Assembly (NCBI GenBank): GCA_018992565.1
Contig: JACVGW010000012.1
Span: 1 to 49,095 of the forward strand
Source: Theionarchaea archaeon
GTDB taxonomy: Archaea; Methanobacteriota_B; Thermococci; Methanofastidiosales; SZ-28-30
DNA length: 49,095 nt
Direction: 5' to 3'
Shown: positions 1-46,435 of the stretch, in pieces
How the letters are laid out: every line of letters starts with the position of its first letter
Position numbering within the stretch: the first letter of the stretch is position 1
The notes under the pieces: model-generated
The model's database searches: none
Seen by the model: the letters and a program-made list of their open reading frames with translations, nothing else
Told to the model about the DNA's origin: nothing
Position numbers and translations under genes: made by a program

Positions 1-250
1 AAGCTCGATGAGCGACGGCGGAATTCTGCAACTGCGTACTGTCCCGACAATGAACTCTCGTCCCTCTTGATCTGCGGAAGAAGAGGTCCCTTTCGGAGGG
101 AAGTGGATCAATCTTCTTTATCTTGTGAACCCCGTCAGGTCCGGAAGGAAGCAGCGGTAGTAGGAACGTTGGATGCTTGAGGGGTAGCGGGGAGGAGAAA
201 GGCTGTACTGCAAGTACAGGAGGAAACCCCCATCATCGAGCATGTCTTTT
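1..250 (+). ncRNA. ffs: Archaeal signal recognition particle (7S) RNA, 5' end (Alu domain) probably upstream of the window
   Basis: Helix 8 motif CCCGTCAGGTCCGGAAGGAAGCAGCGG (131-157) has the GGAA tetraloop. Helix 6 has a GGAG tetraloop (95-98). A long helix 5 closes with GCTCGATGA (3-11) / TCATCGAGC (233-241). The 3' end is approximate. Confidence 0.93.
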
Positions 251-283
251 CCCTCGCAGTGAGAATAATCTGGGGTTTCCAGT

Positions 284-19783: not shown

Positions 19784-21898
19784 CTACTCCATCTCATGAG
19801 AGTACAAGACGAGAGAGTCAATATAGAAGGAAGATGCATACGGAAAAAGGGATATCCTAATGTCCTCACCAGGAGGCAACACAAAAAAGGCCACGAAGTG
19901 ATTGTCAGTGTTGAACCTAAAAATTGTCCCCGCGTATACATCATTGATTTCAATGTCCACATTTCCCTTTCCAGTATCTGCATAATGAATGCCCAGGAGG
20001 ACAGCCTCCCCTGCAGGAAGACTGAAATAAGATCGTACTCCGTGAGGTACTGATCCAGCACTCAGGTAAAGAAGGGGCGTATACAGAACTGGGTCTTCAT
20101 CTGTTACTGAAAGAATGTAAATGTCATTTTGATGAAATTCAAGGTTATACAAAGGAGAGTCTTCAACCATTTCAGGATCAATCCCGTCCTCCTCTTGAAT
20201 ATACACATGCGTAATCCCATACTTTTCCAGAATGCTCTTGCTGAACTCCGAAGAGGGTAGTGTCTTCAGAGTAGCCAGGTCGGTAAACCGTTCAGGAAGG
20301 TTCAATTCACTCATGGCATTGTCTCCCTTGTAGTAGAGATGATAAGGTAGTAGCACCCGCCTTCCAACTACTGCTGGAATCCAGGTAGAGGAATCTCCAG
20401 ATGATTGAAAATTCAGTATTGTGTCCTGCGGAGTGGTATTATTTGATAACCACCTGTATGCAGCGAGGGCGTCATCACTGATAGTGGGTTGCTGCTGCGG
20501 TAGTATGAAGAAGGGATCACTGACGTGAAGGATACAGGCTACCAGGACAAGCCCAGACAAGAACCACGTCATGTTCCTTTTTTCCAGTATCTGAGCCAGG
20601 AATAATCCTGCGAGCACAGACAATACTATGATTACCATTCTCATAATGAAAACAGGATCAAAGACCCACCATACTGGCACTAGTATACTGCTCAGGAGTG
20701 GAATACACAAACATACCGTATACAATCCTCCTACAGCCACAGGGAAAGAAACCACCTGTCTCACCCTGCGAACGGTGCATACCTGAAAGAGCGCAAATAT
20801 CAGTAACAAGGGCCCCATGGAAAAAAAGAATGTATTAAACTCCTTTAAACTATTCAAACTCTGGCTAAACCACTCTCCAGCAAACATGACCTCTAGGGGC
20901 TCGAGTGGGGGAAAGACGATTCTCGCCAGGGGGGGAAGACTGAACAGCAAGAAAGAGGCCAGAATATAGAAGGTAGACCGATAGACAATCATGAATCCCA
21001 CCAGAAAGACAGCAAGGGGAAGAAATGCATTCAAATCAACGCAAAAGCAGGCAGCGCAGGCTAATCCTGCCACTGCAAATTGAGAACGCGATTTCTGGGT
21101 AACGGCCTGAATGACCAGCGAAACAGCAAAGACCTGCAGAGTGATCCCTATGAGAAGAGGGTAGCTACCTGACAAGGCAACCTGGTGGAAGAGAAAAGAC
21201 AGTCCTGCAAAGGAGAATGCAGAAGTCAGCCCCACTTTCTCTGAATGTAAGGTCTTCCCCAGCATATAGACAGCAACACATCCCAGAGAGGCTGCAAGAA
21301 TGCCTACCATAGTACTGACTGGAACAAGGGGGCTGCGTGATGCCTGTGCCACCATGACAGCCATTCCATGGTATCCCAGAGGCTGGGTTACATGATGAAT
21401 CTCTGGATATAATGGAGCGTAACCGGAAGGAAGATTCATGGACTCCAGGATAGTACTGCAGTGCAGAAGGTGAAGCTTCATCTCATCCCCTGGTGGGAAA
21501 AATGCCACGTAATCTGTCCAGGGGTATACGTACGTCAACATGAAAAGGATACACCCCAGGAGATATACTGTTTTTCTGTCTATCAGAGGAAGAGGCGTAT
21601 CTCTCTTCAGTAGTATCATGGCAGAACCAAGGGATAACCCCAGGGGGATGGGGGCCCACACAATCCATGCACAGTAGTACACAACAACAGTGAGGAGTGC
21701 TGTACCACACAAAACACACACCAAAGGCGTTTTCTCTTCAAACCCCGCATACTCCCAGATCAAGAACCCGGGGAAGAAGGTCATCAGCAGCAATGCAGCA
21801 CCAATTCGGATGATACCTACAGGGATCAGTAGTGCACCTGCCAGTACAGCCCAGGCACTTAGGATAGAGACTCTGTTTCTGGTGAGATGTTCTCTCAT
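19784..21898 (-). CDS. Multi-pass GT-C-fold glycosyltransferase-like membrane protein
   Basis: Many TM helices, an acidic 'GDE' in the first loop, 'PLGYH', and a C-terminal extracellular domain 'AYRWLSNNT...WIPAVVGRR...KYGITHVYI'. Start reassigned to 21898. Confidence 0.6.
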   Translation of the reverse strand: MREHLTRNRVSILSAWAVLAGALLIPVGIIRIGAALLLMTFFPGFLIWEYAGFEEKTPLVCVLCGTALLTVVVYYCAWIVWAPIPLGLSLGSAMILLKRDTPLPLIDRKTVYLLGCILFMLTYVYPWTDYVAFFPPGDEMKLHLLHCSTILESMNLPSGYAPLYPEIHHVTQPLGYHGMAVMVAQASRSPLVPVSTMVGILAASLGCVAVYMLGKTLHSEKVGLTSAFSFAGLSFLFHQVALSGSYPLLIGITLQVFAVSLVIQAVTQKSRSQFAVAGLACAACFCVDLNAFLPLAVFLVGFMIVYRSTFYILASFLLFSLPPLARIVFPPLEPLEVMFAGEWFSQSLNSLKEFNTFFFSMGPLLLIFALFQVCTVRRVRQVVSFPVAVGGLYTVCLCIPLLSSILVPVWWVFDPVFIMRMVIIVLSVLAGLFLAQILEKRNMTWFLSGLVLVACILHVSDPFFILPQQQPTISDDALAAYRWLSNNTTPQDTILNFQSSGDSSTWIPAVVGRRVLLPYHLYYKGDNAMSELNLPERFTDLATLKTLPSSEFSKSILEKYGITHVYIQEEDGIDPEMVEDSPLYNLEFHQNDIYILSVTDEDPVLYTPLLYLSAGSVPHGVRSYFSLPAGEAVLLGIHYADTGKGNVDIEINDVYAGTIFRFNTDNHFVAFFVLPPGEDIRISLFPYASSFYIDSLVLYSHEME

Positions 21899-22032
21899 AT
21901 ACACACCACAATTCTGGTTGGAGTCTATAAGAATGTTGCCATCCTCTCCTGCTCTGTGCACCACATAATTTTCTTTCTTTAAGCTACTATCATAACCGTA
22001 AGTTTTATAAGGTATTGTGATATAGTACTGGC

Positions 22033-24333
22033 ATGAGAAGAGTGCTGGCTGCAGTACTGGTGCTGTTGCTTCTTTCGGGAAGCCTGGAAATGGAATCCAA
22101 GAAAATCGTGGTAGTCTCAAACTCGATTGACTATTCCTCAAGTCTTATCACGTATCTGGGCCAGTCATTTGAGGTTATATCCATTACCGCACAGCAGCTC
22201 CCCAGCTACCAGAATTACCAGCACTACGTCATTCTGGGTGGTCCAGATGCCCCTGAGGGGGTTGGCGAAGTGGTGCGCACATTGCTTGACCCTACTGAAC
22301 AGGAGTTTATCAGGACCCCAGGTGCATCTAATCTTTTCATAAGAGAGATCAGGGGAAAGACCTTTTTCATTTTCGCGGGAGCGACCCGGGAACTGACAAG
22401 GGAAGTCACAACTTCCAATAAGCGCCGGATTTTCGAATACATTCCCCGTGGCCCTGTATTGTGGCTGAAAGACCTGGATATCCAGCGCGTTACAGCCATG
22501 GATATTACAGATCTCGACCGGGACACCAGGTATGATTACGTTTTTGGCTGCCTGCGAGTCGTTTCAGACCCCTGGGACAGGGGCGCCATCTATGTTTACG
22601 AGAATAATGACCTCATGTGGTACTACCACGTGTCCAGAGAAATCAAGGCCTTAACCTGTTTTGATCTGGATCACAATGGGAAGGAGGAGATTATTGTCGC
22701 CTGCGATGTCCTCCTGGGTAATGAGGGTGATCTTTACGTTTTCGATCACAAAGGAATCCTCAAATGGAGGACTCATGTACCAGGATCTCCTCGAGGGCTG
22801 TACTGCTATGATCATTATGTAGCAGTAAACCTGTATGGGGGGGGAAACCGTGTCTTGATCTTTGATAATGAAGGGACCCGGGTAGCAGATTTGCCTGTGA
22901 ATGGGCGAATTTCCAAATTCATAATATCTGACATAAACAAGGATAGAAAGAAAGAGCTCGTGGTCAGTGGCATCGTGGATGAGAACTGGGAGCATTTCTT
23001 GACTGTGTATGACATGAGGGGGAATGTTCTGTGGAACTACACCACGTTCGAACATATCAATGATTTCCAATTTCATGACGTAGACAACGATGGCATGGAA
23101 GAAGCGCTCTTCATTTCCTATGACACGCTGTATGTGACCAGGGGAGGAGAGCTCCTGGGAAAAGTACATTTGCCCCCTGCCCTCCTGCATATGGAGGTTA
23201 TGGGTGATCAAATCTTGCTGGTTAACAGTGCCACCATGTTTGTTATAGAGGTACAGGCAGTAGCATCTCTGGAAGGAGAGAGTATTCCTCTTTCCGACTT
23301 CTCCCAAATGGTTACGTCATCTATTTCCCTCAGTTCTCAGCCGGAGTTTTTCATCGTGGAAGACATCGATCTGGACCATGTAGATGAAATTGTGGTTGGG
23401 AATGGTCAGGCGCTGGAAATCTACGTTCTGGAAGATTTCGGGCCTGGCATCAGTGGGTTCGTCACTGCGGCTGAGAGGATAATTCAGGGAGTGGCTGAAG
23501 AACGAGAAGAACTTCCTGATGCTGACTTTATAGTATATGAGGATTCGAAATTAGGGTTCAGAACAAAGTACTACAACCAATGGACAGAAGAACAGGTAGA
23601 GGGGGCAAATGCAGTTGTCTTTTACAGTCCTCTTGAGAGCGAACAGGATGTACTTCGAGAGAATGTGCTGGTATCAGTCTACAAGCTTCAGCCGGGAGAT
23701 CCTACAGATATTCATGAGTATGTTGAGCGAGAACTTGAAGAAATGAGAGAACAGAGTCCCGATTTGCGAGTCATTGAATCCACTGCAACTACTATGGGGG
23801 ACAGCCCTGCTCGCAGGGTTGTCTACATTGAAGGTGAAGAAATAGGCGGTGAACTGATTATAACTGTGCAGGTTGGCGCTATAAAGGAGAGCAACCTGTA
23901 TCTTATGACGTATATATCTGTGATCAGCACCTACAACCGATATTTACCCATTTTTGAGAAGATGGTATCTTCCTTTGAAATAATTGAACAGGTTCGACCA
24001 GTTGTTATTTGTCAGGTTCAATTTGATCCTGAGGGAGATGATAATGCAGACCTCAACAAGGAATGGGTGAAGGTCTGCAATAACAGTGATACTGATGTTG
24101 ATCTGTCGGGATGGACTCTGGAAAACGACGTTGGGGGGCTTTTTGAGTTTCCCCAGGGATTTGTAATCAAGGCAGGAAGCTTCGTTTTTGTATACACCGG
24201 TTCAGGTACCAACAGTGACGTTGCACTGTACTGGGGTTCTCCAGTGGAGAGGTGGAACAATTCAGGAGATACAGCTGTCTTGCGGGATGCAGAGGGGAAT
24301 GTGATGGACGAGTATGAATGGACTCCTCAGTAA
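22033..24333 (+). CDS. Secreted multidomain surface protein (S-layer-like N-domain, FG-GAP/propeller repeats, PsbP-like domain, C-terminal lamin-tail domain)
   Basis: Signal peptide; 'VILGGPDAPEG'; DLDxxGxxEI repeats; LTD signature 'EWVKVCN...VDLSGWTL...WNNSGDTAVLRD'. Confidence 0.75.
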   Translation: MRRVLAAVLVLLLLSGSLEMESKKIVVVSNSIDYSSSLITYLGQSFEVISITAQQLPSYQNYQHYVILGGPDAPEGVGEVVRTLLDPTEQEFIRTPGASNLFIREIRGKTFFIFAGATRELTREVTTSNKRRIFEYIPRGPVLWLKDLDIQRVTAMDITDLDRDTRYDYVFGCLRVVSDPWDRGAIYVYENNDLMWYYHVSREIKALTCFDLDHNGKEEIIVACDVLLGNEGDLYVFDHKGILKWRTHVPGSPRGLYCYDHYVAVNLYGGGNRVLIFDNEGTRVADLPVNGRISKFIISDINKDRKKELVVSGIVDENWEHFLTVYDMRGNVLWNYTTFEHINDFQFHDVDNDGMEEALFISYDTLYVTRGGELLGKVHLPPALLHMEVMGDQILLVNSATMFVIEVQAVASLEGESIPLSDFSQMVTSSISLSSQPEFFIVEDIDLDHVDEIVVGNGQALEIYVLEDFGPGISGFVTAAERIIQGVAEEREELPDADFIVYEDSKLGFRTKYYNQWTEEQVEGANAVVFYSPLESEQDVLRENVLVSVYKLQPGDPTDIHEYVERELEEMREQSPDLRVIESTATTMGDSPARRVVYIEGEEIGGELIITVQVGAIKESNLYLMTYISVISTYNRYLPIFEKMVSSFEIIEQVRPVVICQVQFDPEGDDNADLNKEWVKVCNNSDTDVDLSGWTLENDVGGLFEFPQGFVIKAGSFVFVYTGSGTNSDVALYWGSPVERWNNSGDTAVLRDAEGNVMDEYEWTPQ

Positions 24334-24550
24334 TGGAGAGCGCTGCTGGGCACTGAGAATGAGGAGCCTGTAGGGTCATACGAAACGTACTGCTGAAAGA
24401 ATTCAGAAATACTCGTTCTCATGGATATATCTTTCAAGATTATCAGTTGTTTTCCTGCACGGTATGGAGCAGTCGAGATCAGGCTGCATTAGGAGGTTCT
24501 TTGCCGAGACAACCCATATCTTTATATACAATACTAACCCCCTTTTTTTC

Positions 24551-25159
24551 ATGGAAGATCCCCGAGGGAAGTACATCAGGTGGAGTGAAGAGTGTGTCTG
24601 GCAGCCTTTCGGTTCATCACTGGTTATTCTCAACCCTTCTCACTCTCACACAGAACTTGTGGATCCGTATGTGAGCCTCAATGAAACGGCAAGAGACATA
24701 TGGAACTGGTGTGATGGTACCAGGACCTTTGAGACTATTGTTGCCCTCATACAGCAGGAATACGAGGGAGATCCCGATCACATCAGTGCCAATGTGCAGT
24801 CTGTTATTTCTCAGCTTCACCAACAGGGACTTCTCAGCTATGAAGATGTCCCGTGCGTCCCCTCAGAACTTACTGTTTCCCCTCACGATTTCATCATGTG
24901 GGCAGATACTGTCCTGTGGGAAGAAGTCGAAGGCAAAATCATTGTCCTGGACAATCATACAGGAACCTCTTACACTCTCCCTGAGGAAGCAACAGACCTG
25001 TGGAAGCTTCTCAATGGACAGGCTGCGCTTCTCATGGTTTTACGCACCCTGAAAGAGAAGGGGACTATTAATGAGGATATGCCCTCAGCCAGATTCAAGC
25101 TGCTTCTCAAGGAGTTTATCAAACTGGGATTACTGACAGTAAAAGACGAACCCTGGTGA
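24551..25159 (+). CDS. Tandem PqqD-like / RiPP recognition element (RRE) protein
   Basis: Two PqqD-like units: 'LNETARDIWNWCDGTRT...IV..I..EY' and 'LPEEATDLWKLLNG'. TATA TTTATATA at 24521. GTGA overlap with the next gene. Confidence 0.85.
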   Translation: MEDPRGKYIRWSEECVWQPFGSSLVILNPSHSHTELVDPYVSLNETARDIWNWCDGTRTFETIVALIQQEYEGDPDHISANVQSVISQLHQQGLLSYEDVPCVPSELTVSPHDFIMWADTVLWEEVEGKIIVLDNHTGTSYTLPEEATDLWKLLNGQAALLMVLRTLKEKGTINEDMPSARFKLLLKEFIKLGLLTVKDEPW

Positions 25160-26514
25160 AATACATGCAGTCCCTCAAGAGAAAAATCATCATCAAAGTG
25201 GATGAACAGAAATATCTTCTCGTGAACCCTTACACTGGGTTGGCAGATATAATTGATGAAGAGACCTGTCAGCTCCTCCAGCATGATTCTATATCCGTAG
25301 ACAGTGATACAATCCGTACCCTGCAGGCCAGGGGTCACATAGTACATGAGGGAGATGAGGAAGACCTCCTGGACTATCTTGAGCAACAGGCAAAGAAACT
25401 ACACCAGGAGGCCTTACAGTACCACAATCACTGTCTCATCCCCACCTATGGGTGCAATCTTCGCTGTCTTTACTGCTATGAGAAGCACATGTACAAGAAC
25501 GAGGTAAAACTGACACCAGTCATGAACAAGAAGACTGTTGATGCCTTTTTCAGCACCATTCTGTCTATGGATTCTGATGGTCCTCAACGGTTGATAACTC
25601 TGTATGGAGGGGAACCTCTTCAGCTCAAGAACAAGGAGATCATCCAGTACATTCTCTCCTTGGGGAACTCTCATGGATACACCTTTGAAGTGGTAACCAA
25701 TGGAGCTGATTTCCAGCACTTCGTCCCTCTTCTCAGCACTGTTTCTGTAAAATCTGTTCAGATTACTCTGGATGGGCCGGAACGTATTCATGATGCCCGC
25801 AGGTTTCGTCCTGGCAAAAAGGGAACCTTCCAGGATATAACCAGGGGAATAGACATGGCTGTTGACCATGATATCCCCGTAAAGATACGAATCAATGTGG
25901 ACTCTGACAACCTTGATCATATCCCTGAATTTGCTGACTTCTATCAGGAAAAGGGCTGGTACCCGGCTGCGAAGGCGTATGCCTGCAGTGTGCGTTCCTC
26001 AAGCTGTTCACCATATACCCGGGTCATCCCCCCAGAGGACTTTTCCAGGAAAATGATTGACCTTTTTGTGCATGACAGGAGAATGGAATTATTCCCTGGC
26101 ACATTTGGGAGTTTCAACTTCGTGTTCGGTCATCTCTTTCTAGGAACACCTCTCAAGAAACGATTCTGGGGATGCAGTGCGCATACTTCTCTGTTTTTCT
26201 ATGATCCCTTCGGCGATATATACGCCTGTGGGGAGGCTGTAGGGCATAAAGAACACCGAATTGGCACATTCCTTCCCGAACTCACTCTTAATGAGAACTA
26301 TCATAACTGGAGGGGCAGGACCATCCACACAGTACCTGAATGCGCAGACTGCAGCCTGAGTCTCTTCTGCGGTGGAGCGTGTGCATTCAAGGCATACCTC
26401 AAGAATGGCTCTATATACTCCCCGTACTGTGATCATGCCAAATCATCCGTGGAACATGAAGCGAAATATCTGTACCATCTAATGGAGACTCGAGGTACAA
26501 TGCTTTCACATTGA
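25156..26514 (+). CDS. Radical SAM/SPASM peptide maturase 1 (N-terminal RRE-like domain)
   Basis: CNLRCLYC, YGGEP, TNG and QITLDG; SPASM C..GDIYAC..CxxC..CGGAC..C. Confidence 0.92.
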   Translation: MKYMQSLKRKIIIKVDEQKYLLVNPYTGLADIIDEETCQLLQHDSISVDSDTIRTLQARGHIVHEGDEEDLLDYLEQQAKKLHQEALQYHNHCLIPTYGCNLRCLYCYEKHMYKNEVKLTPVMNKKTVDAFFSTILSMDSDGPQRLITLYGGEPLQLKNKEIIQYILSLGNSHGYTFEVVTNGADFQHFVPLLSTVSVKSVQITLDGPERIHDARRFRPGKKGTFQDITRGIDMAVDHDIPVKIRINVDSDNLDHIPEFADFYQEKGWYPAAKAYACSVRSSSCSPYTRVIPPEDFSRKMIDLFVHDRRMELFPGTFGSFNFVFGHLFLGTPLKKRFWGCSAHTSLFFYDPFGDIYACGEAVGHKEHRIGTFLPELTLNENYHNWRGRTIHTVPECADCSLSLFCGGACAFKAYLKNGSIYSPYCDHAKSSVEHEAKYLYHLMETRGTMLSH

Positions 26515-26589
26515 TAATTGGCCGCACTTTTTGCAGGGAAACTTCGAATAAAGACAACATTTTTAAATCCGCTCGCTGAATGTAATATA

Positions 26590-26631
26590 GAAAGATATTT
26601 AAACCTACAGAGAGAAAGAGTTCAGAGGTGA
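26590..26631 (+). promoter_or_regulatory. BRE/TATA promoter and RBS of the precursor peptide gene
   Basis: Purine-rich GAAAGA followed by TATTTAAA (26596-26603). RBS GAGGTGA at 26625-26631, 4 nt before the GTG. Confidence 0.7.
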
Positions 26632-26635
26632 TTCA

Positions 26636-26776
26636 GTGGAAGTCAAGCGACTCAACAAGAAGACCTGGGCTGACGGTGTTATAAAGCCCCTTGGCGCTCC
26701 TCCCACTCCTGCTGCCATTGATGGCTGCGGCGGCAGCTGTTGCAGCTGCTTCGATTATACCTGTGACCACTGGTAG
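26636..26776 (+). CDS. Putative RiPP precursor peptide, 46 aa: MEVKRLNKKTWADGVIKPLGAPPTPAAIDGCGGSCCSCFDYTCDHW
   Basis: Translated by hand; absent from the ORF track. GTG start after GAGGTGA, TAG stop at 26774-26776. Basic K-x-L-N leader, Pro/Ala linker, and a core with 5 Cys. Lies between rSAM/SPASM genes. Confidence 0.85.
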   Translation: MEVKRLNKKTWADGVIKPLGAPPTPAAIDGCGGSCCSCFDYTCDHW

Positions 26777-26849
26777 AACTCAATGGTTCTGGTGTAGAGA
26801 AGGAGTAGCTCCAGGTCAAATCTTGAAAAAGAGAGATCAAGTCTATCAG

Positions 26850-26899
26850 GGCGGTGGGGTGAACCCAGCATTCGCGGGTTCTCACTGCCTCCCTTTTTT
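26850..26899 (+). terminator. Stem-loop plus T tract between convergent precursor and rSAM2 genes
   Basis: GGCGGTGGG (26850-26858) pairs with CTCACTGCC (26881-26889), with inner AACCC/GGGTT, followed by TTTTTT (26894-26899). Confidence 0.6.
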
Positions 26900-26906
26900 G
26901 TGAATG

Positions 26907-27989
26907 TCATCCATTCTGGGTGGGAGTATATGGGCACTGGGGATCTGGCTGGAATGGATCATCATAGACTGCATACGCAATACAGGTGGCACCTCCACTG
27001 CAAATGTTGGGCGCTCTCTTGCAGAAGTAACAATCTCGACATTTTCCTTTGACAATGAGATGTTTCTGGCGGAGGTTCCATAGGACTGGATGACTCCAGA
27101 TCGTAACAAAGTCCTCTTTGAGGAGGTTTCCCAGGAAGACAGGCATCCTCCGACAGGGATAGACATCACCGTTCTCCATGACGCAGATGTGGGATAGCCC
27201 AGCACTGCACCGGTGGCCATTCTTGGTGAGAGCATCAGGATGGGAAGGGTCGAAGATAACTGGCCAGTCGCACCTGTCCCTGGCAATGTGCAGGCCAGAT
27301 GGTTTTTTCGTCGAGAGTTCGTCGAAATCATGGCTTAATTTTGTATATAAGGTCAAGATTTGTTCTGGAGAAAGCATCAATTCTTTGAGTGCCTTCCCCC
27401 TTCCCCAGGGGACAATCCGCGTGACAGTGAGAACATCTGCCCCCATAGCCACTGCAAGGTCTGTTATGTTGAAGGCATCTTCATAGTTGTCTTTGTGGAC
27501 TACATAGTGCATGTGAGTGACGATCTTGGACTTGCTGAGATGGTTCAGTGCTCTCAGTGCCTGGAGAAATGTGCCTCTTCCCCGTACTGCGTCGTGGATT
27601 TCTGAAGTCGCACCATCAAAGCTGATTTGAACATCTATGCGCATGGAGTATTTCTCAAGGCGGTGCACCATCTCTTCAGTCATGGTAGTCCCGTTGGTCA
27701 GTATGGCTGCATAGCAGGGAGACGAGGGGCTCTCCTCAATGTAGTCAAGTATATCCCAAAACTGAGGATGCAGTGTGGGTTCTCCTCCTGTCAGCCAGAT
27801 GACAGGCATCCTCTCAAACCTGGAGCAGTAGTCCAGAAATGCACGTATCACTTTCTTACAGTCCTGAAACCCCATATGATAGTGGGTTTCTGCATCATCA
27901 TAACAGTGGATACACCGCAAATTGCACTGGCCAGTGATTCCCACCTGCATGATGAAGGGATGTTTTCTGGACTCAGGATCATCTCTCAC
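26907..27989 (-). CDS. Radical SAM/SPASM protein 2 (PqqE-like architecture, no fused RRE)
   Basis: CNLRCIHC, LTGGEP, CSAG, GDVYPC and CRDCYFC..CSGGATC..DPQC. GTG 27989 overlaps the upstream stop (GTGA) and follows RBS AAGGTGA. Confidence 0.9.
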   Translation of the reverse strand: MRDDPESRKHPFIMQVGITGQCNLRCIHCYDDAETHYHMGFQDCKKVIRAFLDYCSRFERMPVIWLTGGEPTLHPQFWDILDYIEESPSSPCYAAILTNGTTMTEEMVHRLEKYSMRIDVQISFDGATSEIHDAVRGRGTFLQALRALNHLSKSKIVTHMHYVVHKDNYEDAFNITDLAVAMGADVLTVTRIVPWGRGKALKELMLSPEQILTLYTKLSHDFDELSTKKPSGLHIARDRCDWPVIFDPSHPDALTKNGHRCSAGLSHICVMENGDVYPCRRMPVFLGNLLKEDFVTIWSHPVLWNLRQKHLIVKGKCRDCYFCKRAPNICSGGATCIAYAVYDDPFQPDPQCPYTPTQNG

Positions 27990-29326
27990 GGTATCACCTT
28001 CTTTGCTTCCATGATCCTCCACAGGAGCGGGTAATATATGGTGCGGGCCTGCTTTGAAAACGTGCAATCAGGCCTCAGGAGCGTGCCTTTCTCATGATAC
28101 ACATAGTGGGCACATCCTCCTCCGCAGATCATGGCATACTTGCACGAGTGGCAAGGGTTCATGGTGAAGATCGTTCTCTCCTTCCACTGGTGGTAGTGTC
28201 GATTCAACACAAGTTCAGGGTAGTATCTCCCCACAGCATGCTCCCTGTCACCCAGAGTATCAGTGCACATGTAGATATCTCCATGGGGGTCCAGCCATAC
28301 TTGAGAAGGATTCTGTCTGCAGTAGGTAGTACAGGGAATCCAGGTGTCAACTCCCAGTCCAAGTTTCTTCCGTATAGGTTCCAGCCCAACCCAGAAAGCG
28401 TCCCGGACTGACTCCTCCTCAACCAGAAAATCCAGGTCTTCCTCATGAAGGTTACACACGAAATTAAAACATCCCCCCTCTGTATGATGGCGCTGCGGAG
28501 TTAGGAACACGGATACGTAGGCGCTGTTCTTCCATCCTTTCTCTTCTGCAAAGTCCATGAATGAGGGTAAGTCCCTTACCGTGGAATGGTCAAAGACTAC
28601 ACGCACATATACGCGTATCTTCTCATCTGCCAGTGCATCAACTGATGCCACAATTTCCTGAAAGGATCCCGTTCCATCCAGTTTCTTTTTTCTGGAATCG
28701 TGAACAGGTGGTAGCCCATCCAGGGTGACCTGCACTGAGGTAATGTCATGCTGCGACAGAAGAGGAATGAATCTTTTTGCTTCCAGCCCATTGGTGACTA
28801 TAATGAATGATTTTTCCTGAGATGATCCTTTTTCCAGTACATATTTGACCAGATCATAATTCCGGTAGAGGAGAGGCTCCCCCCCAAACAGATGAATGGG
28901 AGTATCAGCTTCAGGGTTCATGGTTTCCATGATTTCAAATGCTTTGTCTACATGGTCAAAACTCATGGTGTTCTCAAGCCAGTTCTTCTCTCTCTCAAAA
29001 ACATAAGACTCAAAGCAGTAGTCACACCGCATGTTGCAGGCATAGGTGAGGATCAGCACAAAGAACAAGTTGTCTTGGACAGGGTTGAAGGATGTGAGGC
29101 AATCGTATGCATGGATGATTTCCTCTCTGGGGGACATGGTAGTCAGAAACCCTGACTCCTGCAGTATTTTCACAGCCTCGGCGTCACATGCTTCTGGATT
29201 CTCACTGTCCAGAATCTCTTTCAGATGGTTCTTCCCCTGCAGAATGTGACCGGTGAATGTATTGACGAACAGGTAGTCTTCATCAGAGACCGGGATGACC
29301 ACAGCGTATCGGCTACGGGTCAACAT
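27986..29326 (-). CDS. Radical SAM/SPASM peptide maturase 3 (N-terminal RRE-like domain)
   Basis: CNMRCDYC, FGGEP and QVTLDG; SPASM GDIYMC..CHSC..CGGGC..C. Confidence 0.92.
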   Translation of the reverse strand: MLTRSRYAVVIPVSDEDYLFVNTFTGHILQGKNHLKEILDSENPEACDAEAVKILQESGFLTTMSPREEIIHAYDCLTSFNPVQDNLFFVLILTYACNMRCDYCFESYVFEREKNWLENTMSFDHVDKAFEIMETMNPEADTPIHLFGGEPLLYRNYDLVKYVLEKGSSQEKSFIIVTNGLEAKRFIPLLSQHDITSVQVTLDGLPPVHDSRKKKLDGTGSFQEIVASVDALADEKIRVYVRVVFDHSTVRDLPSFMDFAEEKGWKNSAYVSVFLTPQRHHTEGGCFNFVCNLHEEDLDFLVEEESVRDAFWVGLEPIRKKLGLGVDTWIPCTTYCRQNPSQVWLDPHGDIYMCTDTLGDREHAVGRYYPELVLNRHYHQWKERTIFTMNPCHSCKYAMICGGGCAHYVYHEKGTLLRPDCTFSKQARTIYYPLLWRIMEAKKVIP

Positions 29327-30641
29327 GGCTCTTTTTCACCGCCCTGTAGAGGTGGGGAACCACACTTGAAAACACTTCTTCGTAGTTGTAGCACACTGGC
29401 CTACACAGGGTCCCAAACCGCGTCAAGGCTTCATACCCACATCCTCCCCCGCAGAATAAAGCGTATTTACATGTTCTGCACTCGGGGATGGTGAAAATAG
29501 TCCGATTCCTCCACTCGCTGTACATGTCATTCCACACCAGATCCGGGTAGTACCTCCCTACTCTAGCCTGTTCTTCCCCCACATGTTCAGTGCATACGTA
29601 TATGTCTCCAAAAGGATCAAAAACAAACGTGCCGCTCTGTGCATCGCAGTACCAGAAGCGGGGAGGTCCCAGTTCTCCTTTTTCAAATACCTGTTCAAAC
29701 AATTCTGCCCCTTTCAAGTCGAACGATACGTGCATAATATCAGGAGATTTCTGTGTTTGGGCTATGACTGTATCATACACTGTACTCCTGGGGACAATGG
29801 GGGTGTACTGGATTCCCGGTTTCTTGAAGACAGGTGACACATGCATTGATACCTTTGGATGGTGGAGCCAGCCCTTCTCATGGTAGAGCTGCACTACTTC
29901 AGGCAGGACAGACAGGTTGTCTGCATCAATGTTTGTGCGCAGCAGACAGGTCAGCCCTGCTTCCAGAGCAGCATCAATTCCTTCTATGATTTCTGAAAAA
30001 GTCCCAGATCCATTTTTTTTGAACCGTCTCTTGTCATGAATTTGCTGGGGCCCATCTATGGTGGTCTGTACGGCTACCTCATAGGGCTGGAAGTCCTCTA
30101 CAAAATCGCGGAGCAAGACACCATTTGTTAGAACCAAAAAGGAATACCCGAGATCATCTCCTGTCTCCAGTATCTTCTTCACAGCATCTCTGTTCTTCCT
30201 AAGGAGAGGCTCTCCTCCGTACAAGATGATTCGGTAGCGAGATTCATCCAGCCGGGCGATTATACTGAAAATAGTGTCTATGTGGGGACCATCGATAACT
30301 GTGGATTCTCTCTTTGACTGTATATCAGAAAGGTAACAATACGGGCACTGTAAATTGCACTCGTACGTGAGAACAATGAAATGCTGATGCAATACAGGGT
30401 GCCCCTGCACATATGTGTCGTACATGGTCTTTATGCACTCTGACTCCTGATAAGGTGTCAGTTCTGTAAGATGCCCTCTCTCGGTGAGAGTATCAAGAAT
30501 TGTTTCATCCGGAGGAATTTCATTCCTGAGTACTCTCAGGACTTCTTCATCTACCAGATCTAGTGCACCTGTTCTTGAATTGATAAGAAGGTACGTGTTT
30601 TCGTCGAGCTGCAGCGGAATGCTGTACACACTCACGTTCAC
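29313..30641 (-). CDS. Radical SAM/SPASM peptide maturase 4 (N-terminal RRE-like domain)
   Basis: CNLQCPYC and YGGEP; SPASM CDA..GDIYVC..CRTC..CGGGC..C. RBS GGAGGTGG. Confidence 0.92.
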   Translation of the reverse strand: MNVSVYSIPLQLDENTYLLINSRTGALDLVDEEVLRVLRNEIPPDETILDTLTERGHLTELTPYQESECIKTMYDTYVQGHPVLHQHFIVLTYECNLQCPYCYLSDIQSKRESTVIDGPHIDTIFSIIARLDESRYRIILYGGEPLLRKNRDAVKKILETGDDLGYSFLVLTNGVLLRDFVEDFQPYEVAVQTTIDGPQQIHDKRRFKKNGSGTFSEIIEGIDAALEAGLTCLLRTNIDADNLSVLPEVVQLYHEKGWLHHPKVSMHVSPVFKKPGIQYTPIVPRSTVYDTVIAQTQKSPDIMHVSFDLKGAELFEQVFEKGELGPPRFWYCDAQSGTFVFDPFGDIYVCTEHVGEEQARVGRYYPDLVWNDMYSEWRNRTIFTIPECRTCKYALFCGGGCGYEALTRFGTLCRPVCYNYEEVFSSVVPHLYRAVKKSHVDP

Positions 30642-30779
30642 CAGACCACCTCCTTGCCAGTCAATGCATCCTGGAATGGGTTATCATATAAATGTTTGCT
30701 CATCGTGGCTGGCTCTCTGAGCCAAGGAAGCATCGGCATAGAGACTGAAAACCTTTTTAACAGTACTGATTGACAGAAA

Positions 30780-31574
30780 ATGATGGATCATGATGATTTT
30801 GTCAGGTATGTAGAGGATTCACATACGGTATTTGTACTATATTCCATCAAGGAACGATTGGTAGGTATAGATGAGACCACAGACGTTGCTATCAAGAAGA
30901 TAGGGTATCCTGGAAGGATGGAGAATATTCTGAGGAAGCTCTTTTTTGGAGAAGGGATTCCTGGAATTGTGACAAGGAAGACCCGTCCGTATTTTCACAG
31001 TCTGATTTCCATTCCTTTGCGGAAGATCGACATATGTGCCTTTGCTCATGCTTCTCTTGAGACTCAGCTGGAGGAGAAATGGAAGGTTGAAATGGAGCAA
31101 GCACACGGGAGGAAAAGGATGTTGTTTGAATTTGCTGCATCACTGAGAGACATTTTTATGAAGCAGGAGATTCTGGCATCAGCTATCAGGGGTTCAACTG
31201 TCATTGAGGGAAGGTATCCCTCCCCTGTGGATGCTGTAAATTTCGTCATTTTCACCGAATTCGATTTGAAAGAATATTTTGAAAGGGAAATCACTCAACA
31301 TAAAGAGATCAGCTTTTTTAAATGGATTGACTGGGGATTTAGGGATGTTGTCGCAGGGAACAGAACAAGGAAAACACTCATAGAGCAGAAGACTGTTTTG
31401 TTCGAAAGGAATGGGATGTACAGGATTGATGTGCGATCTTTCAACCCTGAACAGTGGTTCTGGCTCAAGAAGGCTCCCAGAGTGACCCGGCTGGTATACC
31501 TCAAGAGCCTGGAAGGGATCTACCCTTTCAAAGGAGAAGAGCTCTTGCAGGAGTTCTGCAGTCTCATCACATAA
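30780..31574 (+). CDS. Hypothetical protein, possible degenerate nucleotidyltransferase-like fold
   Basis: 264-aa ORF upstream of rSAM5. 'AIRGST...PVDAVNFVIF' weakly resembles the Pol-beta GS...DxD motif. Confidence 0.6.
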   Translation: MMDHDDFVRYVEDSHTVFVLYSIKERLVGIDETTDVAIKKIGYPGRMENILRKLFFGEGIPGIVTRKTRPYFHSLISIPLRKIDICAFAHASLETQLEEKWKVEMEQAHGRKRMLFEFAASLRDIFMKQEILASAIRGSTVIEGRYPSPVDAVNFVIFTEFDLKEYFEREITQHKEISFFKWIDWGFRDVVAGNRTRKTLIEQKTVLFERNGMYRIDVRSFNPEQWFWLKKAPRVTRLVYLKSLEGIYPFKGEELLQEFCSLIT

Positions 31575-31619
31575 GTGGAAAGGATTTTAACTCTGAAAAC
31601 AGAGAGGAATGATAGTCCC

Positions 31620-33008
31620 ATGTATGCCAGTACGTACAACAGCGTGATACCCATGGACTCGGGTGAAGCAGTGTTATTCAATTCGCTGAGCGGAGCTCTT
31701 TTTGTGCTGGATAGAAGAATTGCATCTGCTATAGGGAGGGGGGATTGTGGATCAGTGGACAATTCAATTCTTCAGTATCTTAAGAAGGACAATATCCTGT
31801 ATGATAGTATTGACGATGAGAAGGCTCACGTCAGCTTCACTGCAGAGATGGTGAAGAAGTCTCAGGAAAGTGAACGAATACGGTATCATGTGGTTCCCAC
31901 TCTCGGGTGCAATATTTCGTGTTCTTACTGCGATAGAGGAGGGGACAGAGACAGTATGTCTGCCAGCCAGGCTGCAAAGGTAATTGAGGCTATAGAGTAT
32001 GTTGAAGAGTTGACTTCTGGTAGCCATGCACCCCTTCTGATTCTGGATGGTGGTGAGCCGCTGTCTCTCCAGGAAGAGGTGAGAGAGAGTTGTTCCACTT
32101 TGCTGGATCTGGCCGACGAAAGGGATTTTCACGTAGCTTTCAGGACAAATGGAGTCACCTTGTCCGAATATGCTGCAGACCTGACACAGTACTATGTTGA
32201 GTACGTGGATGTTCCTGTAGATGGCACGAAATCATATCACGATAGGAGACGAAGATCCCAGAAAGGGGGAACCTTTGACGATATTGTGACAGGCATTGAG
32301 ACAGCTCTGGATTGTGGGTTACAGGTGAACCTGCGTCTGCAGGTATCATCTCACAACCTCATGGAAGCACCTGCAATGGCGGAGTTCATCATGGACAAGA
32401 CATGGCACCTGGCCAGGAATTTTCGTGCACTTCTTTGCCCACTTGAGGACTTCTCCTGTTATGGGTTTCGTACATGTAGGCCAGACTATAGTATCCTGAA
32501 GGATGTTCTTGAGTTGTACCAGGCGCATGCAGCAATGGAGCTTTTCACGCTAACTGGATTCTTTGAGATTTCAAGCCTGTTGTACCTTCTGGAGAGTGGA
32601 GTGAGTCTTCGCCCTCGGTTGTCCCCCTGTGATGCAGGAAAAGCACTGTACTGTTTTGACCCTTACAACACCATCTACCCCTGCGTGGCAGCCTGCATGA
32701 TGCGGACGTCACCTGTGGGCATGTACCAGCCCGAAATGACAGTATTTCCTGCCCTGGATCAGTGGCGAACCCGTAGCGTCTTCACTGTGGATTCCTGTCT
32801 ATCGTGCCCCTTCTGCTTTGTATGTGGTGGAGGGTGTACTCTGCAGGCGACGACCCATGGTGCTGTGACCAAACCTCAATGCCGTCCTGTAGACACGGCC
32901 TTACAGCTAGCATGTGCAGAATACTTGAGTGAGAATAGAGCAAGAGAGAGTTCTTTCATCTATTTTGATAACATTTTTATCCCAAAAAAAGAAATAACCT
33001 TCCCATGA
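31620..33008 (+). CDS. Radical SAM/SPASM peptide maturase 5 (N-terminal RRE-like domain)
   Basis: CNISCSYC and DGGEP; SPASM CDAG..IYPC..CLSC..CGGGC..C. The N-terminus aligns with those of rSAM3/4 from ATG 31620 (alternative GTG 31575). Confidence 0.9.
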   Translation: MYASTYNSVIPMDSGEAVLFNSLSGALFVLDRRIASAIGRGDCGSVDNSILQYLKKDNILYDSIDDEKAHVSFTAEMVKKSQESERIRYHVVPTLGCNISCSYCDRGGDRDSMSASQAAKVIEAIEYVEELTSGSHAPLLILDGGEPLSLQEEVRESCSTLLDLADERDFHVAFRTNGVTLSEYAADLTQYYVEYVDVPVDGTKSYHDRRRRSQKGGTFDDIVTGIETALDCGLQVNLRLQVSSHNLMEAPAMAEFIMDKTWHLARNFRALLCPLEDFSCYGFRTCRPDYSILKDVLELYQAHAAMELFTLTGFFEISSLLYLLESGVSLRPRLSPCDAGKALYCFDPYNTIYPCVAACMMRTSPVGMYQPEMTVFPALDQWRTRSVFTVDSCLSCPFCFVCGGGCTLQATTHGAVTKPQCRPVDTALQLACAEYLSENRARESSFIYFDNIFIPKKEITFP

Positions 33009-33031
33009 TACGTTATGGAAGAAAAACAGTC

Positions 33032-33481
33032 CTATCCATATGTTTCAATTTCGGGATGAGATCTGGCTTTTTCTACTATAGGGCCTTCCACGATGAATCC
33101 GAGAGCAATGCCGCTGCCACGCACTGAAAGAAGGCAGTCATTTGGTTTAATGGAATATCTCTCGAGGGTCACCACGGGAACTGTGAACTCTCTGTCCCGT
33201 ATAGTAATAGAGCAGCAGGGCTTTCCATCAATCTCAATGAGGGTTCCTTCAGGCACAGACGTGCTCAGAACCGCATCTACCATGCGTCTCATGGGTGAAT
33301 CCCTGGCCAATGACTGGGTGGTCACTGCAAATCCTTTTGATGATCTGCTTCCTGGCATGAGAACACCTGGACCTTCCAGCCTGTATTCTTGTGCTGCCTC
33401 CTCAGGGATGATGATTCTTCCTTCTCTTCCCACCCTTGACCATCCAAATATGTACTTACCACCCTTTGCAATTCGGGGCAT
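33032..33481 (-). CDS. Tandem AbrB/MazE-like swapped-hairpin domain protein
   Basis: 'SRVGREGRIIIPEEAAQEYRL' and a second unit 'FTVPVVTLERYSIKPND'. Confidence 0.6.
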   Translation of the reverse strand: MPRIAKGGKYIFGWSRVGREGRIIIPEEAAQEYRLEGPGVLMPGSRSSKGFAVTTQSLARDSPMRRMVDAVLSTSVPEGTLIEIDGKPCCSITIRDREFTVPVVTLERYSIKPNDCLLSVRGSGIALGFIVEGPIVEKARSHPEIETYG

Positions 33482-33739
33482 GATGTAGATTGAACCTCTA
33501 CCTTATATAATGAGTGCGTGACAGCAGGAGATGGCTACGTATGGGCCTTCTAGGATTCGTTGTCTCATTCTTTAAGTCTACACGGAACAGTCTGTACGCG
33601 AAGAGTTCAGGGATCAGAAAAAGCACAAACAAGGGTTGCAGATTTATATACTGCGCTATTGGGAGATGATGTCATGAGAAGGAATAAAACGAAATGCTTA
33701 TATATAAGTTAACCTATAGAAAAGTTCAGGACAGAAGAG

Positions 33740-34240
33740 GTGATAATCATAGACAAGAAACAGAAGTTGGGAATTGTAGTGATTCTTGCAGTCCTGGTGT
33801 TTTCTACGGTCACTTTCACTGCAGCTGATTTCTCAACGTTCTTCACGCCGCTATATACTGTGAGAATGGAGCAGGCAAGCAGCAAAATGAACTTCTTATC
33901 CACTCCAGTAAACGAGTTCACGTATTCTACTGAAGGAGGGCAAACATTTGGTTACCATATTACTGGCAGAACATGTGCTTGCTGGGGCGATCAGACCCCT
34001 CAACTGCCGCTGACATGCAACACCTGTGATGATTACTATTGCGAAGAACCTACGCATTGTGGCACCTGTGTTACCTGCTACAGCACATGCCAGGACACAT
34101 GCCCGAATACGTGCTCCACATGCTCCACGTGCAGTGGTTCTACATGTGAGCCTGCTACATGTCCATGGACGCAATGGCCCTACTGTGCAGAAACCCTGAG
34201 CTGGCCGACGTGCTACTGGGCAACCTGCTACTGGTGCTAA
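33740..34240 (+). CDS. Signal-peptide-bearing Cys/Thr-rich repeat protein (possible second rSAM substrate)
   Basis: Basic then hydrophobic N-terminus, 19 Cys in the C-terminal ~90 aa (mostly TC dipeptides), TATA at ~33699-33707, and a T-tract terminator after the stop. Confidence 0.75.
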   Translation: MIIIDKKQKLGIVVILAVLVFSTVTFTAADFSTFFTPLYTVRMEQASSKMNFLSTPVNEFTYSTEGGQTFGYHITGRTCACWGDQTPQLPLTCNTCDDYYCEEPTHCGTCVTCYSTCQDTCPNTCSTCSTCSGSTCEPATCPWTQWPYCAETLSWPTCYWATCYWC

Positions 34241-34249
34241 TCTCACATC

Positions 34250-34266
34250 ATTTTTTTCTTTTTTTT
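34250..34266 (+). terminator. T-tract terminator
   Basis: Two T runs separated by a single C, just after the stop at 34240. Confidence 0.6.
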
Positions 34267-34441
34267 CCTGATAGGCAGCAGCTATCATATGAAAGAAGAA
34301 TATGACTGCAGATGTCTCAGGGATCTTCTTCTGCGTCTCGTATTTCACTTCATGAGAGGTTACTATATTTGCACAAGGAGAGTCTGTTTATTCATCTCAG
34401 TGATCCTTGGGGTGGCTCTTTGTGTGTTCATCTGTCTTCCT

Positions 34442-45114: not shown

Positions 45115-45274
45115 GTAATCACCAGAAGATTATCCTGCCGTAGAGTAATATAAACTTTTCCTCTTCCTTCCATACTGATAATGAGAGGTGTACGGTACAC
45201 TGTGGGCTGCTGAATGCTGTACTTCCTACCTCCACAGGAGAAATCCTTTTATGAGGAAAGGAGAAGGTCTCTGC

Positions 45275-46435
45275 ATGGTAGGTACGGAACCCATGTCGCG
45301 CAGGGATTTCATCAAGAAGTCTGTAGTGGCAGGAGCCGGCCTTGCTCTGGGCGTGTACGGCGTGTCCCGGCTGCTGCAGCACGAGTCCCCTTCTGCGTCC
45401 GGTGACAGTGGACAGCCCTGGAAGTGGTCAAAAGAAGGGTACCACTATATTACTCTGGGAGACTACGTCCAGTGTCAGATCTGCCCCAATCAGTGTGTAC
45501 TGAGAGAAGGAGTCAGGAGTGTATGCCGCAACAAAACCAACTACAAGGGCACCTTATACACACTAGCCTATGGAAACCCGTGCGCAGTTCACGTGGATCC
45601 TGTGGAGAAAAAGCCTCTCTTTCACTTCCTTCCCTCTTCTTCGGTTTATTCTGTAGCCACTGCAGGGTGCAACTTCAGGTGCTTGAACTGCCAGAACTGG
45701 GAAATCTCTCAGAAAAGCCCGGAAGAGACCACAAATATGGAATTGTTCCCTGAGAATGTGGTGATGAAAGCAGAGCAAGCAGGGTGTCAGTGTGTCGGAT
45801 ATACATACAGTGAGCCTACAGCCTGGTATGAGTACATGTACGATACAGCTCGAATTGCCTCACAGAGAAGAATCAAGAATATCTGGGTGACCAATGGCTA
45901 TATGAATGAGCAGCCTTTGAGAGATTTATGTCAGTATCTTGATGCAGCCAATGTGGATGTGAAGAGCTTTGATGAGAGGATCTATCATGAGCTCAATTCT
46001 GGAATGCTACAACCTGTGCTTAACACTTTAAAGATATTGAAAGAGGAAGGGGTGTGGATTGAAATGACTAATCTGGTGATACCAACGTGGACAGACGATC
46101 TGGACATGATCCGTGAAATGTGCCAGTGGCTGTACGAGAATCTGGGTCCTGACTATCCACTGCACTTCTCCCGATTTCATCCTGATTATAAACTGCAGCA
46201 TTTGCCCCCCACTCCCATTGAAATCTTGAAAGAAGCGCACACCATAGCTGAAGAAGAAGGGCTGCACTACGTTTACATTGGGAATGTGCCAGGTGTTGAG
46301 GAGCAGAGCACGGTGTGTCCTTCATGCCAGAGAGTGGTGGTGGAAAGGAATGGGTTCTTCATTGTGCAAATGCATATTCAGAATGGAGCATGTGAATTTT
46401 GTGGAGAGACGGTGGCAGGTGTGTGGTCAGGATGA
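45275..46435 (+). CDS. amrS: AmmeMemoRadiSam system radical SAM enzyme with twin-arginine-like N-terminus
   Basis: SRRDFIK, CQICPNQC, DPVEKKPLFHF, CNFRCLNCQNW, YTYSEP and YVYIGNV. Confidence 0.92.
   Translation: MVGTEPMSRRDFIKKSVVAGAGLALGVYGVSRLLQHESPSASGDSGQPWKWSKEGYHYITLGDYVQCQICPNQCVLREGVRSVCRNKTNYKGTLYTLAYGNPCAVHVDPVEKKPLFHFLPSSSVYSVATAGCNFRCLNCQNWEISQKSPEETTNMELFPENVVMKAEQAGCQCVGYTYSEPTAWYEYMYDTARIASQRRIKNIWVTNGYMNEQPLRDLCQYLDAANVDVKSFDERIYHELNSGMLQPVLNTLKILKEEGVWIEMTNLVIPTWTDDLDMIREMCQWLYENLGPDYPLHFSRFHPDYKLQHLPPTPIEILKEAHTIAEEEGLHYVYIGNVPGVEEQSTVCPSCQRVVVERNGFFIVQMHIQNGACEFCGETVAGVWSG

Follow-up and report, generated by a model that had tools for sequence, protein, structure and literature searches.

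To our knowledge, the crosslinking of peptides by radical S-adenosylmethionine (SAM) enzymes is known almost entirely from bacteria, usually with one enzyme per peptide. For archaea, a survey of peptides synthesised on ribosomes and modified after translation (RiPPs) reports predicted ranthipeptide and sactipeptide clusters across the domain (PMC12144867), and the combination of a RiPP recognition element (RRE) and a radical SAM/SPASM enzyme with Cys-rich substrates, surveyed there, has been shown for CrpC of Methanococcus voltae, a TIGR04463 member that forms ranthionine in CrpA, a Cys-rich protein (PMC13692751). CrpA is a 28.8-kDa repeat protein that its authors link to growth on pyrite (PMC13692751). 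The locus considered here lies in a stretch of 49,095 nucleotides from a Theionarchaea archaeon (GenBank assembly GCA_018992565.1, contig JACVGW010000012.1, positions 1 to 49,095), referred to throughout as the window, in which positions 24551-33008 hold five intact radical SAM/SPASM genes, a gene for a two-domain PqqD (RRE) protein and a 46-codon Cys-rich gene. The locus, which lies on an accessory island of 10 kb in an archaeon of Theionarchaea type, is probably a RiPP-type cassette serving the leader-guided maturation of a peptide by multiple radical SAM enzymes. An archaeal signal recognition particle RNA at window 1-251 marks the window as archaeal, and the names carried by close protein relatives are Theionarchaea and Methanofastidiosia.

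In what follows, G000 denotes the genome of the window, and G001 and G002 its congeners; L-numbers mark the loci or contigs compared, and C-numbers contigs. The island and the genes on which the argument turns are as follows.

24334 to 34441, no strand: accessory island of 10.1 kb between the LTD766 gene and hutH, containing all the genes listed here and below.
24551 to 25159, plus strand: tandem PqqD/RRE protein of 202 aa, with PF05402 on its first half; the longest open reading frame (ORF) begins at 24464.
25156 to 26514, plus strand: rS452, a long radical SAM/SPASM enzyme, its start in a GTGA overlap with the PqqD stop.
26636 to 26776, plus strand: pep46, a predicted precursor peptide of 46 aa from a conserved small Cys-rich family.
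26907 to 27989, minus strand: rS386, a short radical SAM/SPASM enzyme that lacks an N-terminal domain; probable GTG start at 27989, longest ORF to 28067.
27986 to 29326, minus strand: rS446, a long radical SAM/SPASM enzyme with CefB, TIGR04463 and TIGR04085 matches.
29313 to 30641, minus strand: rS442, a long radical SAM/SPASM enzyme, the first gene of the minus-strand operon.

A preliminary description of this DNA had listed five full radical SAM/SPASM genes within ~8.5 kb, three transcription units for the enzymes, a two-domain PqqD-like protein and a 46-aa Cys-rich ORF, all of which were borne out by the present analysis. Each of the five enzymes matched the Pfam radical SAM family PF04055 (56.6-76.3 bits against a cut-off of 29.5) and contained one CX3CX2C motif and a C-terminal seven-Cys SPASM-type pattern, placing all five in the radical SAM/SPASM superfamily, the SPASM basis for the fifth, rS477, being the Cys pattern and family alignments only. 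TIGR04085 or the Pfam SPASM model PF13186 was over cut-off for rS452, rS446, rS442 and rS386; TIGR04085 was so for three enzymes in the genome-wide count, and for rS446 at 50.3 bits (cut-off 27), while Pfam SPASM matched rS386. Gene order resolved three multi-gene units, namely PqqD-rS452, joined by the GTGA overlap, rS442-rS446-rS386, with overlaps of 14 and 4 nt, and the abutting pair hyp264-rS477. The start of rS386 forms a GTGA overlap with the rS446 stop and has GGTGA upstream. TATA-like boxes, located by eye, precede PqqD and pep46, the peptide gene having its own, and also occur in the divergent spacer at 30642-30779.

As judged by gene content, the conserved unit is a set of six genes: a pep46-type peptide, the tandem PqqD, rS452, rS446, rS442 and rS386. 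This six-part set was found again at C13:43086-50336 and on the metagenome contig L035, with the following counterparts.

Family peptide: pep55 on C13, pep54 on L035.
Tandem PqqD: 39% identity on C13, 44% on L035.
rS452-type: 46% identity on C13, 49% on L035.
rS446-type: 54% identity on C13, 54% on L035.
rS442-type: 50% identity on C13, 53% on L035.
rS386-type: 58% identity on C13, 45% on L035.

A tree of 44 chosen long enzymes (four from the window, 26 from G000, seven from G001 and seven from metagenome loci, the short rS386-type being omitted) resolved the enzyme types into separate clades. The rS452 clade comprised seven rows with a Shimodaira-Hasegawa-like approximate likelihood ratio test (SH-aLRT) value of 100, every member lying directly downstream of a tandem PqqD; the rS446 and rS442 clades each comprised three rows, from the window, C13 and L035, with SH-aLRT values of 100 and 99, respectively. 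Elsewhere in the sister cassettes (L011, equivalent to C13:33001-52500; L035; L012, equivalent to C97; and C140) were genes for a class I methyltransferase, a nitroreductase-family protein and a B12-binding radical SAM enzyme, with flanking winged helix-turn-helix genes, and such swapping of tailoring genes is typical of RiPP clusters. An ATP-binding cassette ATPase and permease pair was seen by eye next to the rS386-type genes of C140.

The conservation of pep46 indicates that it is a real precursor gene of an unnamed family. It has a GTG start with the Shine-Dalgarno (SD) sequence GAGGTGA 4 nt upstream and a T-run after the stop, and its product consists of a predicted leader of approximately residues 1-29 followed by the Cys-rich core GCGGSCCSCFDYTCDHW, with five Cys at positions 31, 35, 36, 38 and 43. 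When pep46 alone served as the tblastn query, paralogues were found on contigs C97 (E 2e-11), C29 (0.002) and C13 (three). A simple leader pattern selected seven of the 43,036 ORFs of at least 20 aa in the genome, six of them members of the pep46 family; a profile built from the six members scored each at 6e-18 or better, as it must by construction, and the next ORF at 0.15. The preliminary description had made its proposal depend in part on the small ORF being conserved beside homologous enzymes, and this proved to be so: all six family members in G000 lie within about 500 nt of a radical SAM/SPASM gene, and in the 133 genomes of the class the profile found only these six copies and one, of the ortholog type, in G001, where it adjoins two radical SAM genes. 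The family was not found in G002, a genome 84% complete. Among 5.8 billion proteins, 17 clusters were recovered at E <=0.01, the sole organism names being Theionarchaea and Methanofastidiosia; the leader M-K/E-x-x-x-L/V-N-K-K-x-W-x-D is common to all 17, whereas the Gly/Cys-rich cores differ strongly and are hypervariable, with 4-10 Cys within the final 25 residues. The locus accordingly has the general hallmark of a RiPP system, a precursor gene of conserved leader and variable core adjoining modifying enzymes. A likeness of this leader to SCIFF leaders was not borne out, there being no NCBIfam match at E <=10.

The first half of the PqqD protein belongs to the PqqD/RRE family (PF05402, 73.8 bits against a cut-off of 23.4). 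The second half has no Pfam match; since profile-profile comparison aligns it to the first (hhalign probability 97.9%, E 5.7e-13, 92 columns), the protein is a tandem PqqD. Its start was placed at M30 of the longest ORF (24551), the point at which the paralogues begin, and the TATA-like CTTTATATAC was located by eye ~25 nt upstream. The tandem family is rare, with seven clusters in 5.8e9 proteins, and the window protein matches the ScmD, PqqD and GeoRSP PqqD models, all under cut-off. What decides the matter for rS386 is a Rosetta-stone fusion in G001, where a single 616-aa ORF (L016:8301-10151, contig C10), in a cassette with three long maturases, encodes both a tandem PqqD (residues ~25-220) and an rS386-type enzyme (residues 246-612, 43% identity). 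The same G001 cassette holds a 67-aa Cys-rich ORF with a leader unlike that of the pep46 family.

A model of the complex between PqqD and pep46, computed from a 12-row alignment of the former and a 14-row alignment of the latter, gave an interaction prediction score from aligned errors (ipSAE) of 0.73 (runs 0.61, 0.73 and 0.82), the best of three controls scoring 0.00; the mark thereby passed is reached by 116 of 157 solved complexes and by 2 of 215 mismatched pairs. Contact agreement between runs was at least 43%, with a predicted value of the local distance difference test (pLDDT) of at least 48 for the partner. In the model, pep46 residues 8-28 would contact the first domain of PqqD at residues 38-47 and 69-89, which is the classic mode of RRE binding.

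Comparison with curated families made none of the enzymes a member of a named family. CefB (NF038107) is the best curated family of the four long enzymes, with 160.7 bits for rS452, 160.2 for rS446, 129.6 for rS442 and 116.4 for rS477 against a cut-off of 600, and the alignments run from the N-terminus; CefB is presumably a 'Cys-every-fifth' maturase, a function taken from the model name only, and the Cys spacing of pep46 does not follow every fifth residue. TIGR04463, the CrpC family, gave the long enzymes 101.6-129.4 bits against a cut-off of 525, and is second best for rS452 (127), rS446 (129.4) and rS477 (101.6). Other scores were likewise too low for membership: PapB, 71-120 bits for the long enzymes (cut-off 340); the SCIFF maturase TIGR03974, 61.6-91.4 bits (cut-off 425), its precursor model TIGR03973 being unmatched, which places the system outside the SCIFF/ranthipeptide family; and AlbA, StsB and RumMC, 54-94 bits (cut-offs 625-850). 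SkfB was among the Protein Data Bank (PDB) matches of the enzymes, and the nearest solved structure to rS452 is CteB (5WGG, E 4.6e-21). According to the preliminary description, a clustering of the enzymes with non-peptide SPASM families, the anaerobic sulfatase maturases (anSME) or the Ahb haem enzymes, would have told against a peptide system. No such clustering was seen, all scores of this kind being far under cut-off (for anSME, TIGR03942, 42-75 bits across the five enzymes against 349), and the long enzymes score best on peptide maturases, not on anSME or Ahb. Profile comparison of the N-terminal domains with PqqD gave a probability of 83% for the rS446 group (E 9e-6) and of 52% for the rS442 group (E 1.5e-4), making a fused RRE likely in both.

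Of the described systems, those of CteB/SCIFF (thermocellin) and the PapB type share with this locus an enzyme in which a peptide-binding N-terminal domain is joined to a radical SAM core and to a SPASM domain carrying two auxiliary clusters, together with a precursor of ~45-55 aa possessing a conserved leader and a Cys-rich C-terminal core. They differ in having one maturase, where four are co-conserved here alongside a separate tandem RRE protein; moreover, the maturase scores lie far under the cut-offs and pep46 matches no SCIFF model. CrpC/CrpA is likewise archaeal and combines an RRE-radical SAM-SPASM enzyme with a Cys-rich substrate of leader-like N-terminus; however, CrpA has a mass of 28.8 kDa as against the 46 aa of pep46, the Crp system has one enzyme and no separate PqqD, and the window enzymes, far under the TIGR04463 cut-off, are not members of its family. 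PqqE works with a separate PqqD, and the pairing of a short RRE-less SPASM enzyme with a separate PqqD-family chaperone unites PqqE/PqqD, MftC/MftB, SynChlorMet (ScmD/E/F) and GeoRSP with rS386, which matches the MftC, ScmE, GeoRSP and PqqE models, all under cut-off; in this locus, however, the chaperone is a tandem PqqD in a cassette with three further RRE-type maturases, and the precursors are hypervariable rather than fixed. The cores of the pep46 family, with a Cys-rich first half and a mostly hydrophobic second half, resemble the hairpin plan of the sactipeptides (AlbA, SkfB and thurincin-type), from which the system is distinguished by several enzymes per peptide, by maturase scores far under cut-off and by a link type that is predicted.

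The core proposal of the preliminary description, that an archaeon has several radical SAM enzymes working on a small Cys-rich peptide in a pathway that depends on a leader, is thus supported by comparative analysis, the precursor being conserved beside homologous enzymes; its count of five enzymes must be lowered to four co-conserved maturases, rS477 standing apart. From the genes, domains, precursor family, six-gene co-conservation, fusion and island behaviour observed here, we infer as to leader binding, crosslink chemistry, step order, leader removal, export and biological role. In the pathway envisaged, pep46 would be made as a leader-plus-core precursor, and the first PqqD domain would bind its conserved leader (approximately residues 8-28, with N7-K8-K9 and W11) in the form of an additional beta-strand, the N-terminal domains of the long enzymes probably holding it also. 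The tandem PqqD would present the peptide to enzymes with no clear RRE, namely rS386 and possibly also rS452, the translation of which is in every case coupled to that of PqqD. Each of rS452, rS446, rS442 and rS386 would then abstract hydrogen by means of a SAM-derived radical and form different crosslinks in the Gly/Cys-rich core, the likeliest products being Cys thioethers (sactionine or ranthionine), as made by CteB and CrpC, and the whole most likely yielding a heavily cross-linked peptide of an undescribed family. rS477, together with the nucleotidyltransferase-like hyp264, is a locus-specific extra; the enzyme may introduce a fifth modification or have a different target.

A number of observations weigh against this explanation. 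All the enzymes score below the cut-offs of the curated maturase families among the NCBIfam models, and none of the seven peptides in the alignment matches an NCBIfam precursor model at E <=10, for which two reasons the maturase chemistry is extrapolated from distant relatives. The RRE-like signal is only moderate in the rS446 and rS442 groups and absent, at a probability of ~1%, from the N-terminal domains of rS452 and rS477. Within the complex model the pLDDT of pep46 itself is low (48-62), and the passing score may reflect likeness to RRE-leader complexes already solved. The Pfam matches of the island proteins reveal no transporter or peptidase in 24334-34441, as the preliminary description had already remarked of the enzymes' surroundings, and the sister cassettes likewise have no conserved exporter or leader peptidase. 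A full-length tandem PqqD of 45% identity occurs on two metagenome contigs of ~8 kb (L031 and L032) that have no radical SAM gene, and another (L036) has none within 3.4 kb downstream. A strict pairing of PqqD with an rS386-type enzyme was considered as a rule and rejected, since C140, a partly masked contig, has two rS386-type genes and no PqqD in view. Neither rS477 nor hyp264 has a counterpart in the sister cassettes (C13, L035) or is co-conserved with the peptide. The whole 24334-34441 stretch is missing from the congener G001 at the same site, and modification, transcript and product are predictions.

This last absence was apparent on contig C29 of G001, where the orthologues of hutH (81% identity) and LTD766 (82% identity) are 175 bp apart with nothing between them, and the island is, because of its absence from a congener, considered dispensable. 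Its borders have no flanking repeats (seed 11, length of at least 16), and no integrase is present among the Pfam matches in the island. The genes beyond them have housekeeping or surface roles and include those for CTP synthase and a secreted FG-GAP/LTD protein as well as hutH and hisS. The 785-aa protein of the window (19784-22141) has a G001 orthologue that matches in two pieces, of which the short N-terminal one (L116 7363-7593; G001:C29:16366-16593) contains one in-frame TAG, which may reflect a frameshift, a stop or a different start. At window 45188-47907 a radical SAM gene with a match resembling a twin-arginine translocation signal is followed by a Memo-AMMECR1 fusion gene, a pair which we take to resemble the AmmeMemoRadiSam system.

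The cassette belongs to an extreme lineage-specific expansion of radical SAM/SPASM genes in genomes of 2.5-3 Mb. TIGR04085 matched 67 times in G000, 33 in G001 and 40 in G002 as against 1-5 in each of 18 other relatives, and with rS452 as query the corresponding counts were 41, 34 and 38 versus 0-5 elsewhere. The system had been put forward in the preliminary description as a candidate new one; it is one of several paralogous cassettes, and of a kind already known from the archaeal survey (PMC12144867) and the CrpC study (PMC13692751), although the variant is undescribed. Leader-guided maturation of peptides by radical SAM/SPASM enzymes is the known element, and the unnamed leader family, the four co-conserved maturase clades per peptide, the rare tandem PqqD chaperone and the massive lineage expansion are the undescribed ones. 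Nothing on this system was contained in the literature searched, supplements being outside the search, whether on radical SAM enzymes or RiPPs of Theionarchaea or Methanofastidiosa or on a tandem RRE.

The remaining genes of the island stand outside the conserved set.

30780 to 31574, plus strand: hyp264, a rare, locus-specific protein of 264 aa, probably of a divergent Pol-beta-type nucleotidyltransferase fold.
31575 to 33008, plus strand: rS477, the fifth radical SAM/SPASM enzyme, divergent and locus-specific.
33032 to 33481, minus strand: orf149, a conserved hypothetical gene and island passenger.
33740 to 34240, plus strand: TC166, 166 aa with a Thr-Cys-rich tail and a predicted N-terminal membrane or signal segment, an island passenger.

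rS477 formed a lone long branch (1.18) in the tree, its identity to the 43 other rows nowhere exceeding 29%. The hyp264 family is very rare (four relatives in 1.84e9 representatives), and its homologue in the genome G003 is not adjacent to a radical SAM gene; for these reasons, rarity, location and the isolation of rS477 in the tree, the pair is regarded as a local addition of uncertain role. The assignment of hyp264, on sequence grounds, to a probable divergent Pol-beta-type nucleotidyltransferase fold derives from one relative that matches Pfam Polbeta at 1.5e-4 and from the G-S...D-x-D motif of the relatives, at two Asp positions of which the window protein has A and N. The family profile found nothing in the PDB (best E 1), and Atlas leads from hyp264 to PF01909 and PF04439 fell below the bar. 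Full-length homologues of orf149 at 33-38% identity occur in the same order, and matches in nine of 41 related genomes (G000 counted); none was present in G001 or G002, and the protein has no Pfam match. A plus-strand 131-aa ORF overlapping orf149 is probably spurious.

Two other accounts of the locus are improbable to much the same degree. According to the first, the peptide gives rise to a small redox cofactor, or to a metal- or iron-sulfur-binding molecule, in the manner of PQQ or mycofactocin, with rS386 and PqqD performing the key step and the product remaining intracellular. A separate PqqD is indeed the PQQ/mycofactocin arrangement, PqqE is the nearest solved relative of rS386 (6C8V, E 3.9e-10), the cluster has neither exporter nor peptidase, and the cores are extremely Cys-rich; the link to growth on pyrite that the authors of CrpA draw (PMC13692751) would fit also. 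However, rS386 belongs to neither the MftC family (TIGR03962, 137.6 bits against 265) nor that of PqqE (TIGR02109, 78 against 381), and cofactor precursors retain the modified residues, yet here the leader is conserved and the cores are hypervariable, both from paralogue to paralogue and from sample to sample. That a single genome has six different precursors, and that a congener can dispense with the island, also speak against a cofactor.

In the second account, certain of the enzymes, rS477 in particular, have as their substrate a Cys-rich protein in place of pep46, with the neighbouring TC166 as candidate, much as CrpC modifies CrpA. TC166 lies 0.7 kb downstream of rS477 on the same island, rS477 has no nearby precursor gene of its own, and its second-best family, TIGR04463 (101.6 bits), includes CrpC, the substrate of which is a Cys-rich protein of 28.8 kDa (PMC13692751). 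TC166 has seven other tblastn matches elsewhere in the genome; five appear as best-hit ORFs and none of the five is beside a radical SAM gene, the nearest to any TC166-type ORF being a weak rS386-type match (25% identity) 6.6 kb away on C147. Furthermore, the conserved, unrelated and opposite-strand orf149 intervenes between rS477 and TC166, and the N-terminus of the latter is a membrane or signal segment instead of an RRE-type leader. A role for TC166 as a protein substrate is possible but unsupported.

A decaying or silent paralogous copy devoid of current function is very improbable. Absence from a congener, the many paralogues in the genome and the loss of two motif Asp from hyp264 would be in keeping with decay, but all nine ORFs are open and full length, their Fe-S motifs intact and their start-stop overlaps and SD sites kept; the stretch moreover recurs, with 95-99% of sampled words, in 20 DNA runs of seven studies, mostly of sediments, 15 of the 20 being flagged as possible sources and no RNA run being listed for it. 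Least credible of all is the view of rS386 as an AhbD/NirJ-like enzyme for a tetrapyrrole or another cofactor that lies in the cluster by chance, for although AhbD (haem b synthase, TIGR04545) is its top NCBIfam match (148.2 bits, E 3.8e-43), the score is far under the cut-off of 500 and nearly tied with TIGR04053 (146, cut-off 395), ACGX (142, cut-off 400) and MftC, paralogues of 45-58% identity occupy the corresponding position in each of the two sister cassettes, and the gene is coupled to rS446 and its type fused to a tandem PqqD.

The locus offers a clonable set made up of four enzymes with their 202-aa helper and the 46-aa peptide. This raises the questions of why a single small core rich in Cys should need several radical enzymes, and in what way a tandem RRE that stands alone distributes its substrate among them. 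With no curated peptide model and all maturases scoring below cut-off, the unnamed precursor family would escape family-based mining, in a lineage whose SPASM genes have expanded 10- to 60-fold over those of its relatives. A more ambitious proposal, offered tentatively and on balance doubtful, is that the cassette represents a new RiPP class, a combinatorial platform in which the LNKKxW leader is read by the tandem-RRE chaperone and passed in turn to at least four specialised radical SAM/SPASM enzymes, at least some installing undescribed crosslinks. Were this so, the crosslinks might be formed, for example, on Gly/Cys runs or on a C-terminal aromatic residue, in cores of up to 40% cysteine, and this chemistry would be the purpose of the expansion to 33-67 SPASM genes throughout the genus.

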